A stretch of 61,861 bases of DNA, taken from positions 1 to 61,861 of the IMG/VR virus record IMGVR_UViG_3300006919_000055; one strand, written 5' to 3'. Position numbers and translations under genes: made by a program. How positions within the stretch are numbered: the stretch's first letter is position 1; each line of letters begins with the position of its first letter. The DNA is from a virus. Its lineage: Duplodnaviria > Caudoviricetes. The notes under the pieces were generated by a model. That model was not told where the DNA came from, did not search any database, and saw nothing but the letters and a program-made list of their open reading frames with translations. This document shows positions 5,596-29,475 of this stretch, piece after piece.

Positions 5596-5696
5596 GGTAG
5601 GTTGTTTTTGGATTGATTAGATGCCCCACTCGCCAAACCAGAATGGAGAGGAGCCGAGTATTAATGCTATTACTAAGAACGTCATGGTAGGTTGTT
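5579..5696 (-). repeat. three copies of AACAACCTAC around the start codons of rIIA and the upstream small ORF
   Basis: Plus-strand GTAGGTTGTT at 5579-5588, 5597-5606 and 5687-5696. Confidence 0.85.
5617..5685 (-). CDS. 22-aa hydrophobic peptide (MTFLVIALILGSSPFWFGEWGI)
   Basis: Shares the ACAACCTACC-ATG start context with rIIA; lies downstream of a TTGACC-17-TAAGCT promoter. Confidence 0.55.
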   Translation of the reverse strand: MTFLVIALILGSSPFWFGEWGI

Positions 5697-5758
5697 GTCT
5701 TACTGTTGAGCATAGCTTAATACTTTAATAAGTTTAGGTCAAGGACTTTTTTAATTTT

Positions 5759-5953
5759 TTAATAATTGTTTTGTTTTTCCCTTAAACGCGAGATAAAAAG
5801 AGACTTACGATTCTTTTCGTATTTCTTTCTACTGGGCTTTTCATAGCGACTTCTATCTCTACATTCTTGTATAATGCCAGAACGTAAAACTTGTTTTTTA
5901 AATCTACGCAACGCGCCTTCAACGTTGCCCTTTTCTACTTTTGATTCAATCAT
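5759..5953 (-). CDS. rpsU: 30S ribosomal protein bS21
   Basis: 64 aa, basic; VEGALRRFKKQV..SGIIQECRDRSRYEKPS is the bS21 signature. Confidence 0.9.
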   Translation of the reverse strand: MIESKVEKGNVEGALRRFKKQVLRSGIIQECRDRSRYEKPSRKKYEKNRKSLFISRLREKQNNY

Positions 5954-6089
5954 CTTTTAGGTTTTTATTTATTTTATTTTTTAATATTTTAGCTTTTACT
6001 TTTTCTGGAAGAGAGTCAAATTTAATAATCTTCTTCTTCCAAAATCTTATATAGTCATCCTCTGATATTTGGCACTTTTTCGTTTGCAT
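5946..6089 (-). CDS. 47-aa basic hypothetical protein
   Basis: MQTKKCQISEDDYIRFWKKK...; fills the gap between sigma and rpsU and overlaps the rpsU start. Confidence 0.5.
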   Translation of the reverse strand: MQTKKCQISEDDYIRFWKKKIIKFDSLPEKVKAKILKNKINKNLKDD

Positions 6090-6094
6090 TTAAA

Positions 6095-15923: not shown

Positions 15924-16325
15924 TCATACAGCAAAGTCTTCATGATTAATAGCAAATTGAAAACCTACTATTTCAAATCCAGTGAGATTTCCCACTTCAC
16001 TTCTATTTAAAGAAATTAAAAGCTCGCCTTCTGTTCTAAAAACTAAATCACACGGGCCATTTGGATCGTCGTTGGGACTTAACGAAACCGAAAGGCAATC
16101 TTCATCTTCGTTGTATTTTATTTTTTCATGAGAAAAACTGGCCTCTAGTATGTCAGAAACTTTATAAATTTCTATTAAATATAAAGCTCCCGTCTTTTCG
16201 TCAAGGTCTACGTTAATATAATCTTGAACAGAGTTTACCGTAGAAATAGAAGCTCCTTCGTGAGGATAATCTACTAAAATATAAAATCTTTCTTCTTTGG
16301 TGAAGTATTTAACGCTTTCTTGCAT
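15924..16325 (-). CDS. tandem DUF2283-like domain protein
   Basis: Two repeats of KY..E.D.(F/L).(I/V)...G....(I/F)EI; start moved to MQESVKY, outside the RNA element. Confidence 0.55.
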   Translation of the reverse strand: MQESVKYFTKEERFYILVDYPHEGASISTVNSVQDYINVDLDEKTGALYLIEIYKVSDILEASFSHEKIKYNEDEDCLSVSLSPNDDPNGPCDLVFRTEGELLISLNRSEVGNLTGFEIVGFQFAINHEDFAV

Positions 16326-16337
16326 AATGAAATTAAT

Positions 16338-16502
16338 GGGTAGGAGGATTCTCATTTACCTCCATCGTTTTGGGGTCACAGCTTGAGTTTTCAAGTCAAA
16401 ACCCTACTTTGAGCCAACCCTCATCGGCCCCCAGACTTGGTAAGTCCTGCCAATGAGCATTGCACGTTAACTGCCGCGACAGCAGTTTATTCCGTCATAC
16501 CC
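16338..16502 (-). ncRNA. manA-like structured RNA
   Basis: 5' GGGUAUGACGGAAUAAAC pairs with 3' UACCC; terminal GGAGG-UAAAUGAGAAU-CCUCC hairpin; GUUUUG/CAAAAC and CUGC/GCAG stems; layout recalled for the manA motif. Confidence 0.65.
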
Positions 16503-16534
16503 TTTGTCGCTCCGTCGAGCAACAAAATTTTATA

Positions 16535-27889: not shown

Positions 27890-28117
27890 CTAAGCCATTT
27901 CAGATTTAGCGACTTTACTGTAAACGGAGCAGGGTCTACCCAAGGCAGGTTTAACCTTTTTAAGTAGCTTAATTTCTCCGGACTTAAGTCCTTTGTTAAT
28001 TTTAGTGTGAATTGATACACGGGAAAGTTTACCTTCTAAAGACTTTTGAATGTCTTCGGCAGTAAAATCTTTCTCAGGCCAATCAAACAATACTGGTTTT
28101 CTTCCTTTTTTACTCAT
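27890..28117 (-). CDS. small winged-helix-like DNA-binding protein
   Basis: FTAEDI..LSRVSIHTKINK...GRP..VY pattern. Confidence 0.55.
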   Translation of the reverse strand: MSKKGRKPVLFDWPEKDFTAEDIQKSLEGKLSRVSIHTKINKGLKSGEIKLLKKVKPALGRPCSVYSKVAKSEMA

Positions 28118-28146
28118 AATATTTTATTAATTTTGCGGATAAGGAG

Positions 28147-28213
28147 ACTTTAACTTTTTTATATATTTGGGTCAAGGTTTTTTCTTGACTAATTTTAATA
28201 ACAATATTAATCT
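28147..28213. promoter_or_regulatory. back-to-back divergent sigma70-type promoters at the strand switch
   Basis: Minus: TTGACC(28175-28170)-17-TAAAGT; plus: TTGACT(28185-28190)-17-TAATCT. Confidence 0.75.
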
Positions 28214-28229
28214 AACGACTTAAATTGAT

Positions 28230-28620
28230 CTTTGTTAACGCGGTGACTTAGTGCGAGTATAACTGATAAGTTCACCACAAGCCCGTAAAAAGGCACTAAT
28301 CGAGTAAGGCTAATAACCTTTACGTTACTTCGGGAGCGCACGGCGTCTGAGATTAGTATCTCTCAAGAGATAACCAGAAACTTAAAACCCTGCTCAAGGG
28401 AAAAGGACGGTAGCCAATAAAAAAACCCCACCGCTTATTGACAAGGAATAACTACGTAATATACTGCTCGTGAGCTAGGCGGAAAAACGCCGAAAGCATT
28501 TAAAAGTGTTGCGAAGGGATGAAGCGGGAGTATATTATTCGATAATAAAGTTTTTTAACTTTAAGTGGACAACCATGTTCTTAAACTTACTAAGGGAAAA
28601 TTAAGGACGGTAGCTAATAA
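28230..28620 (+). ncRNA. candidate large structured RNA or leader
   Basis: No ORF >=60 aa; closing stem 28230-28245/28429-28446 with G-U pairs on the plus strand; many hairpins including cUUCGg; second multibranch domain 28458-28536. Confidence 0.6.
28403..28620 (+). repeat. 18-bp direct repeat AAGGACGGTAGC(C/T)AATAA, 200 bp apart
   Basis: 28403-28420 and 28603-28620, each with AAGGGAA just upstream. Confidence 0.85.
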
Positions 28621-28647
28621 TTTAAAATTTACTTTTAACCTTTAATT

Positions 28648-29475
28648 ATGGAAATCATAGATATCGAATCAAACCCAACTAAAAATTCATCTTCTCCTGA
28701 ATTTAATAAGCCTTTATTGGAAGAAGGTGATTATGATAAAATAAATGTAATGATTTGTACTCCCTGTTACGGTGGTAAAATGGATCAAGCTACAGTTTCA
28801 GGAATGATAGGGACGGCAGTTACAGCTTTATCTTCTGGGATAAAAATAGATTTTAGATTCTTATCAAATGACAGCTTAATTACAAGAGCTAGAAATAATT
28901 TAGTTGCACAATTTTTAGCATCAGAAGAGCATACGCATTTATTCTTCTTGGACGCAGATATTCAATTTAACCCTACTTCACTTTTGAGGTTATGCTTGTC
29001 AGATAGGATGGTTTCTGTTGGGGCTTATCCAACTAAAAGTATACCCACTAGATATGTAATTGATTTCAAAGAGGACGCTGTAGTGGATGACAATAAGTTT
29101 ATTGAGGTAGAAAGAGCCGGAACAGGATTCATGTGTATAAAAAGAGAATGCCTCGAAATGATGAAAGACTCTTTCCCTGAACTTAAATATAAATCCGAGC
29201 TAGAAACCAAAGGCTACTCTGACGATGCAGTGGCGGCTTTAGGAGAAGAGTTAATAGAAAAAATAAAACAAAACACCTATTCATTCTTTGATACCTCAAT
29301 TCACGAAACGGGTGGAAACTATTTGTCAGAGGATTATACTTTTTGCGAAAGGTGGAAAAAAATAGGTGGATCAATTTGGTTAGATACAGGATCGAAGCTC
29401 GATCACGTAGGAACCGCTACATACGGCCTTGCTGTAGATGAGTTCGATTCTATTTTCGAAAGTAAGAAAAATTGA
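28648..29475 (+). CDS. GT-A fold glycosyltransferase-like protein
   Basis: CTPCYGG, SLITRARN, FFLDADI, AGTGFMCIKR, YLSEDYTFC. Confidence 0.75.
   Translation: MEIIDIESNPTKNSSSPEFNKPLLEEGDYDKINVMICTPCYGGKMDQATVSGMIGTAVTALSSGIKIDFRFLSNDSLITRARNNLVAQFLASEEHTHLFFLDADIQFNPTSLLRLCLSDRMVSVGAYPTKSIPTRYVIDFKEDAVVDDNKFIEVERAGTGFMCIKRECLEMMKDSFPELKYKSELETKGYSDDAVAALGEELIEKIKQNTYSFFDTSIHETGGNYLSEDYTFCERWKKIGGSIWLDTGSKLDHVGTATYGLAVDEFDSIFESKKN

Follow-up and report, generated by a model that had tools for sequence, protein, structure and literature searches.

A large pseudoknotted RNA upstream of a phage replication array, probably a copy of a new family of structured phage RNAs

In bacteria and phages, large RNAs whose cores are intricate, strongly conserved and tertiary-looking are rare, and the handful of known classes has proved to consist of ribozymes, riboswitches or unexpected RNA-only assemblies. 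The large ornate RNAs GOLLD and ROOL are associated with phages or prophages, measure ~600-800 nt and frequently adjoin tRNA genes. The present analysis concerns positions 28229-28620 of a 61,861-nt stretch of IMG/VR virus record IMGVR_UViG_3300006919_000055 (the window), where a preliminary description had placed a ~400-nt multi-domain structured RNA matching no known family, a central claim that comparison with relatives supports. Like GOLLD and ROOL, which are stand-alone genes rather than gene-specific leaders and are the subject of a cryo-EM preprint (10.1101/2024.12.08.627333), the window RNA is large, multi-domain and strongly covarying. It differs from both in that it matches neither covariance model, measures ~390 nt and lies in a window that contains no tRNA genes.

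Other described systems share single traits with the window RNA. The manA and wcaG motifs of marine phages are likewise phage-borne structured 5′ elements, located upstream of sugar or glycosyltransferase genes, but the window RNA has a different fold and sequence, matches neither model and is about twice their size, and its relatives are not tied to sugar genes. Riboswitch aptamers resemble it in having covarying stems and invariant unpaired bases around a pseudoknotted junction that a P1 helix closes; here, however, there is no consistent class of downstream gene, some members have no downstream gene, and no terminator/anti-terminator platform was recognised. The HK022 put and Bacillus EAR elements, as generally known, are likewise promoter-proximal at the head of very long operons, whereas the window RNA is several times larger, shows no sequence or model similarity to them and has relatives with no operon downstream. 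ColE1 RNA II and the T4 origin transcripts are likewise structured transcripts of several hundred nucleotides, made from a promoter in a divergent control region by replication genes, to which the relatives of the window RNA are not linked.

The relatives were first collected by sequence and not by structure. The closest relative of the first gene downstream of the RNA, at locus L001 (L numbers denote loci), has 76% amino-acid identity, while the gap upstream of it has 89% column identity to the window gap, with compensatory changes visible. A search pattern consisting of two conserved strings matched 12 stretches in viral contigs, 38 in metagenome contigs and 7 in genome contigs. A covariance model (R1) was built from alignment A2, in which 27 distinct cores were aligned by MAFFT without knowledge of the structure. 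Ten exact duplicates and one copy of the window (L003) had been set aside ahead of the search with this model. Over 43 sources, R1 scored 33 at 63.9-110.6 bits and found six other matches at 12.3-18.1 bits, the low scorers being GC-rich coding stretches that contain the pattern by chance. Among the genome contigs, only L058, a 2.2-kb contig binned with a Marinimicrobia metagenome-assembled genome, is a member (86.6 bits), the rest scoring at most 18.8 bits. A looser pattern yielded 26 new viral loci with one member among them (L068, 69.7 bits). The total is 35 member loci across the viral, metagenome and genome collections, none below 63.9 bits and no non-member above 18.8 bits. The four viral records searched whole carry exactly one copy each. 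GC content within the R1 matches ranges from 0.41 to 0.58, and the members come from marine, sludge, soil-like and other samples. The family is rare, is missing from Rfam and occurs almost exclusively on viral or unassigned contigs.

All members share a core of ~110 nt in which an AGUGCG/CGCAC pseudoknot is combined with a three-way junction and two invariant strings, CAAGCCCGU and ACUUCGGGAGCGC. Across the 27 sequences of A2, the 24 core pairs are paired in 92.8% of cells, compared with 71.3% after shuffling and 28-42% when partners are slid, and 18 of the 24 change on both sides, a count that none of 500 shuffles attains. The pseudoknot joins GUGCG at 28251-28255 with CGCAC at 28337-28341 (plus strand, as for all elements of the RNA given below) and is 99.2% paired in the 27 sequences; two of its five pairs covary (U-A to C-G in five sequences, G-C to U-A in three) and the remaining three are invariant. 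Its 5′ strand is followed by a weak hairpin, H1 (AACU/AGUU, 28261-28272), which is 76% paired across all types with one of four pairs covarying, varies in length and is absent from L039. The junction string CAAGCCCGUAAAAAGG (28278-28293) occupies columns that are invariant in A2, although L068, which was recovered with the looser pattern, has AAAGCCCGU at this place, so that the first C can vary. In the three-way junction (28295-28357; 93-99% of cells paired), stem A encloses hairpin H2 and stem B. Every pair of these three helices changes on both sides: 7/7 in stem A (28295-28301 with 28351-28357), 4/4 in H2 (28306-28309 with 28317-28320) and 4/4 in stem B (28322-28325 with 28343-28346). The loop of stem B, UACUUCGGGAGCGCACG (28326-28342), contains a cUUCGg tetraloop (28328-28333), already noted in the preliminary description and invariant, together with the 3′ strand of the pseudoknot, and its string ACUUCGGGAGCGC is invariant in A2. 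Altogether the core has about 25-30 invariant unpaired bases, although the junction and loop strings served as bait and their invariance within the set is partly by construction.

The full-length model was derived with RNAalifold from alignment A4, which holds 15 RNAs of the window's own context type (type A, see below), and its core was corrected by hand. The whole structured RNA (28229-28620) comprises domain 1, domain 2, three 3′ hairpins and a second copy of a repeated module, with 84 pairs in 19 helices. These pairs are formed in 91.5% of cells, compared with 37-49% with slid partners, and 40 of them change on both sides as against 19.2 ± 2.9 in shuffled alignments, none of 500 reaching 40. 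Covariation in relatives had been proposed as a check in the preliminary description, and it is strong in both the core and the full model. Domain 1 is closed by helices P1a (28229-28234 with 28442-28447; 94.4% paired, 4/6 pairs changing on both sides) and P1b (28240-28245 with 28429-28434; 100% paired, 5/6 pairs), which are the CUUUGU/ACAAGG and GCGGUG/CACCGC pairings that had been proposed as its closing helix, with 9 of 12 pairs covarying. Within the domain, hairpin H3 (AUCUC/GAGAU, 28358-28371; three of four main-stem pairs covary) is lineage-specific: it occurs in ~8-10 of the 15 type-A rows and is absent from the others (L005, L023, L037, L044 and L050). A 3-bp pairing that RNAalifold places between 28409-28411 and 28425-28427 is 95.6% paired in type A with one of three pairs covarying, but it is tentative, as it fails by eye in L004 and L017 and has no counterpart in the second module copy.

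Domain 2 (28458-28536, RNAalifold) is built on two main stems, D2a (28458-28465 with 28529-28536) and D2b (28467-28471 with 28524-28528). The first two pairs of D2a are 92.9% paired and one of them covaries; the other 11 pairs of the two stems are 92.7% paired and seven covary, which gives 8 of 13, and the domain is well supported. Inside lie D2c (28474-28475 with 28511-28512, RNAalifold) and hairpins H5 (28478-28481 with 28488-28491; 2/4 pairs covary) and H6 (28497-28499 with 28506-28508; 3/3). Of the 3′ hairpins, H7 (28547-28552 with 28557-28562) is 79% paired with 4/6 pairs covarying, while H8 (28565-28568 with 28573-28576) and H9 (28580-28583 with 28591-28594) are tentative, with pairing in the 75-80% range and no covarying pairs.

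Every sequence feature named in the preliminary description is present in the window at the positions given there, but its helices fared unequally. The AAGG/CCUU and AAUAUACU/AGUAUAUU helices are supported by the comparison, UAUCUC/GAGAUA is supported as a lineage-specific element, and CCCU/AGGG is supported, albeit weakly. In contrast, UUAGUGC/GCACUAA, UCUG/CAGA, CGUC/GACG and the alternative GGUGACUUA/UAAGUUCACC pairing have no covarying pairs and pair no better than shuffled sequences; these four are replaced by the pseudoknot (28251-28255/28337-28341), stem A and stem B. The proposed plus-strand orientation holds, since conserved U-G pairs, found in stem B in 20 of 27 sequences, in D2b in 15 of 15 and also in H8, would turn into C-A mismatches if the opposite strand were read. 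The 3′ boundary is set by four loci of another context type (type C: L008, L013, L027 and L049), whose RNAs are near-identical and whose sequences diverge right after the second copy of the repeated motif. Judged by sequence comparison, these results show that the DNA of 28229-28620 encodes a plus-strand, multi-domain RNA fold maintained by selection, and that its peripheral domains differ between lineages.

The repeated module lies at the 3′ edge of each half of the RNA. Module 1 (28372-28420) consists of AACCAGAAACUUAA, a weak hairpin H4 (28388-28391 with 28397-28400; 77% paired) and AAGGACGGUAGCCAAUAA, and its second copy, module 2 (28571-28620), ends 27 nt before the ATG at 28648. The repeat had been recognised earlier as an 18-nt motif 200 nt apart; the copies at 28403-28420 and 28603-28620 are identical at 17 of 18 positions and exactly 200 nt apart, and the likeness stretches to ~50 nt (AACCA...CUUAA, a hairpin, then AAGGACGGUAGC). 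When the end of domain 1 was compared with the 3′ region in 14 type-A RNAs, the best-matching 14-mers agreed at 12-14/14 positions and lay at the two equivalent places in every RNA; ten of these RNAs beat all of 30 shuffles and four tie. The spacing in type A varies between 193 and 247 nt, with no helical phasing. By lineage the motif reads CGGUAGC, CUGGCAG, CUGAYAAC or GGUUAGC, and because the lineages differ while the copies within one RNA are nearly the same, the two copies evolve together. Among helices of at least 6 bp in 11 RNAs, no complement to either copy recurs at one place. A near-palindrome or kissing contact between the copies was rejected, as the palindromic registers differ between lineages. 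A sigma-54 box, a -35 box, a hammerhead-like CUGAGA...GAAAC and, in module 2, a 9-codon upstream ORF were considered by eye and likewise dropped, for lack of conservation or unsuitable geometry.

The novelty of the RNA was judged against Rfam 15 and the literature. The 4227 models of Rfam 15 include riboswitches, ribozymes, RNase P, 6S, SRP, GOLLD, ROOL, HEARO, OLE and raiA. At the gathering score the whole window matches manA only, outside the region; at E <= 10, positions 28000-28800 give four weak matches, none of them inside 28230-28620, in agreement with the earlier view that no known family is present. At the gathering score, 20 relatives' loci contain only three tRNAs, located elsewhere than the RNA; a pair of tRNAs ~4 kb upstream of the RNA is seen in L010 alone among these loci. 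Eight short loci searched at E <= 5 give one unrelated 16.9-bit match, and ARAGORN finds neither tRNA nor tmRNA in the whole window. Fremin et al. 2023 (PMC10690425) report 10,006 anonymous viral candidate RNAs; the main text, as far as it was consulted, does not contain this RNA, while prior cataloguing in its candidate list, which lies outside that text, is possible. The consulted part of the Minerva preprint (10.64898/2026.09.22.753630) deals with other RNAs. Literature searches by keyword and by the invariant strings returned no description and one unrelated human primer. The segment 28229-28620 is one member of a family of large phage RNAs with a pseudoknot that has no name so far, and by this comparison with Rfam 15 and the literature the family is probably a new RNA class.

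The size of the RNA, its pseudoknotted core and the unusually many invariant unpaired bases would also suit a new ribozyme, whether self-processing or with another catalytic activity, in which the core is the active site and the repeated motifs at the 3′ edge of each half mark two processing sites. No Rfam ribozyme class is matched, however, and the module sequence varies between lineages where the core does not, which makes this proposal very unlikely.

The genomic contexts of the relatives bear most directly on function. The relatives fall into at least four gene contexts that are unrelated to one another, two of them without a downstream gene, and no protein family is shared among the four context types at BLASTP E < 1e-5. 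Type A comprises 17 loci including the window, in which a leftward 75-aa gene is followed by the rightward RNA and, in 12 loci, a glycosyltransferase-like gene; L050 has a dNMP kinase directly after the RNA. In 15 type-A loci, the first, co-oriented ORF begins 0-50 nt after module 2. In type C, the four near-identical RNAs precede four unrelated ORFs, and an unrelated ORF also comes after the RNA in L068. Type B (seven loci) has small ORFs, then a conserved ORF-free RNA of ~450 nt and then convergent genes, with no co-oriented ORF after the RNA; in L053 a terminator-like hairpin closes the conserved block. In G004 (type D), a 12-pair terminator-like hairpin lies ahead of the RNA and a convergent gene after it. 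G003 (L087) is a complete 52.7-kb genome with direct terminal repeats. Its RNA sits 4 kb inward of one terminus and precedes genes for an HNH endonuclease, the large terminase and a homing endonuclease (L087 907-4125, minus strand) rather than replication genes. Two type-B loci, L026 and L058, are natural deletion variants by comparison with L031 and L053, with ~300 nt gone, including the terminator-like hairpin. As they keep the core and one hairpin only, the core may be the minimal functional unit.

Because the contexts are unrelated and two of them lack a downstream gene, the RNA is best read, though tentatively and with slightly less than even confidence, as a self-contained functional module rather than a gene-specific switch. 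A class that spans varied samples and unrelated phage gene sets argues for a function independent of one host or neighbouring gene, and a core that is near-unchanged across unrelated neighbours and differing GC content, with no co-oriented gene in two contexts, points to a module whose binding partner is universal. In the window's lineage the RNA would form the first 390 nt of the rightward early/replication transcript, and in other lineages it would be its own transcription unit. The P1 helix would anchor the 5′ end, and the invariant core would form a pocket for a partner common to very different hosts, which would be a small ligand or else conserved host machinery, for example the ribosome, a nuclease or RNA polymerase. 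The 3′ modules, specific to the lineage and nearly identical to each other, would be a second recognition site, present twice, and binding or folding at module 2 could also gate translation of the first gene as a secondary, lineage-specific use. Among the three roles offered in the preliminary description, a large phage non-coding RNA fits best; a regulatory leader is possible in the window's lineage, and nothing specific supports an origin primer RNA.

Several results weigh against a self-contained module. The transcript, its ends and its accumulation as a discrete RNA are predictions. In the window, no terminator-like site was found between the RNA and the first ATG, which makes the RNA a 5′ leader by position, and in L023 and L037 the start codon directly adjoins module 2. 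The lack of a downstream ORF in types B and D refers to ORFs listed under table 11 only. The two-copy module is weak outside type A, where no more than 3 of 13 RNAs score above every one of 30 shuffles; in one of these three, L017, the best 14-mer match lies ~300 nt downstream and not at the second copy seen by eye. No protein partner common to all contexts was found at BLASTP E < 1e-5. The invariance of CAAGCCCGU and ACUUCGGGAGCGC is partly circular, as both are in the search pattern. The thermodynamic stability is unremarkable: by minimum free energy, 12 of 100 shuffles are at least as stable as the plus strand (z = -1.20), the minus strand has z = +0.78, and folding energy alone is uninformative.

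A bolder reading would make the core the active centre of a new functional RNA class, carried as a portable module by very different phages. Such an RNA would be either a new ribozyme or a capturer of a universal host signal or machine, with the duplicated module as substrate or docking site; it could, for example, sequester a nucleotide messenger or reprogram RNA polymerase or the ribosome. This reading is unlikely. The RNA itself is now a defined object: its pseudoknotted core measures 110 nt, its full form of 390 nt has a native sigma-70-like promoter, and a working covariance model is at hand. Direct biochemical study is therefore possible.

The type-A loci fit a different proposal, that of a cis-acting riboswitch-like leader whose core is the aptamer for a metabolite or nucleotide signal and whose module 2, which duplicates the segment completing domain 1, is an expression platform that opens or closes the translation start of the first gene in the nucleotide-metabolism and replication operon. 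The architecture is of the aptamer type, closed by P1, with covarying stems (18 of the 24 core pairs) around invariant junction and loop strings that resemble a ligand pocket. In addition, the RNA is promoter-proximal with a co-oriented ORF shortly after module 2 in 15 type-A loci, a terminator between RNA and gene was not found, and manA RNA, another phage 5′ motif, occurs in the same phage. A riboswitch would be expected to lie consistently in the 5′ untranslated regions of genes from one pathway, whereas the downstream genes are unrelated across contexts (glycosyltransferase-like or dNMP kinase in type A, four unrelated ORFs in type C, HNH endonuclease and terminase in G003) and absent in type B and G004. 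At 390 nt the RNA is also far above the usual size of an aptamer plus platform, no module-complementary sequence that would permit a mutually exclusive fold was found in 11 RNAs, and the alternative pairing of the preliminary description lacks covariation. A gene-specific riboswitch is on balance doubtful, and the self-contained module is preferred.

The window RNA occupies the first position behind the promoter of an array of co-directional genes that runs from 28648 to the window end over >33 kb, and this position also raises the prospect of processive antitermination of the HK022 put or Bacillus EAR kind. In that scheme the nascent RNA would bind the elongating polymerase and cause terminator read-through across the array; RNA polymerase as a universal target would account for a core conserved across very different phages, and type C has the expected arrangement of a constant RNA followed by variable genes. 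Types B and G004, however, have nothing downstream to antiterminate, no Rfam family was matched although EAR is among the Rfam families, and the RNA is much larger than put or EAR at their generally known sizes. Antitermination is accordingly quite unlikely. If the RNA controls the early/replication operon, it would also open a new way into the timing of gene expression in a lineage of uncultured marine phages.

The 61.9-kb window is estimated to be 39% complete. Genes to the left of 28117 run leftward and include rIIA, rIIB, two sigma factors, dUTPase and dCMP deaminase. Those from 28648 to the window end run rightward and include genes for a glycosyltransferase-like protein, dNMP kinase, the large and small subunits of RNR, a UvsX-like recombinase, a DnaB-like helicase, a primase, an exonuclease and a DnaE-type polymerase, as well as several glycosyltransferases and sugar epimerases. 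The RNA had correctly been described as heading this rightward replication and nucleotide-metabolism array. The intervening 530 nt (28118-28647) are the longest gap between ORFs of at least 70 aa in the window, the runner-up being 5596-6094, and the earlier claim of the longest ORF-free stretch holds on this count.

Such a setting, at a strand switch with a cumulative GC skew minimum near 28 kb, in a replication arm and with two 18-nt direct repeats 200 bp apart, is also what a replication-origin element might have, whether as a primer or R-loop transcript or as a DNA-level site with repeated protein-binding boxes at the divergent switch. However, the effect of gene orientation on GC skew cannot be separated out here, and the minimum adds nothing because it coincides with the orientation switch. 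Linkage to a replication module is not constant, as relatives lie beside terminase genes or between convergent genes; the type-A repeat spacing varies without helical phasing; and conserved U-G pairs together with compensatory changes indicate RNA structure rather than DNA sequence. An origin element is for these reasons highly improbable.

A rightward promoter, TTGACT (28187-28192), a 17-nt spacer and TAATCT (28210-28215), precedes the RNA on the plus strand (28187-28215), as the preliminary description had proposed. Its sequence is confirmed and conserved in type A, where TTGAC occurs at an equivalent distance from the core junction string (-86 to -95) in 16 of 16 loci and TTGACN-N16-18-TAnnnT is fitted by 11 of 16. 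Outside type A, TTGAC is present only in L041 and a complete TTGACA-17-TACACT only in L068. A generic sigma-70 scan did not list the rightward promoter because of its weak -10 element. Transcription is predicted to start near 28222, 6-7 nt ahead of P1, whose first helix starts at 28229. On the minus strand, a leftward promoter-like site (28147-28175; TTGACC, 17 nt, TAAAGT; 9/12 consensus matches) would serve the divergent 75-aa gene. Its -35 box and the rightward one make up an inverted repeat, GGTCAAG(N7)CTTGACT (28170-28190), that was scored as terminator-like by the scan and is conserved in L001; it is best read as two back-to-back -35 boxes of the divergent promoters. A Bacteroidetes-type TAnnTTTG promoter seen by eye at 28163-28170 was dropped, being not conserved or of the wrong geometry. 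A further promoter-like site inside the RNA (28438-28465, plus strand; TTGACA, 16 nt, TATACT; 11/12) consists of sequence from the P1a 3′ strand and the domain 2 5′ strand. Since its TTGACA is retained in only 3 of the 15 type-A RNAs of A4, the site is probably a by-product, although it could yield a domain-2-only transcript in the window phage.

The first rightward gene (28648-29475, plus strand) encodes a 275-aa glycosyltransferase-like protein (phrog_1574) and follows the RNA in the 12 type-A loci mentioned above. In tblastn searches it is 29-33% identical, and the polymerase 25-32% identical, to the best cultured-phage matches, and blastn of 28100-28700 against 50,697 phage records gives no match; on this evidence the window phage is without a close cultured relative. 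The divergent gene (27890-28117, minus strand) encodes a 75-aa basic protein that occupies the same position in 15 type-A loci at 41-99% identity. It occurs in type A only, matches no Pfam or PHROG family and is a candidate regulator or partner.

The manA RNA (RF01745) lies at 16333-16524 on the minus strand, just upstream of an ORF at 15924-16355 (minus strand), and scores 55.2 bits, exactly the gathering score. The window phage therefore has a second phage RNA motif, one that is already known and whose function is unknown. The rightward array (28648-61859, plus strand) intermixes at least five glycosyltransferase-like genes and two nucleotide-sugar epimerases with the replication genes, and it also contains three 2OG-Fe(II) oxygenase-like genes and one methyltransferase. 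The presence of these sugar, oxygenase and methyltransferase genes hints at DNA or surface-sugar modification.

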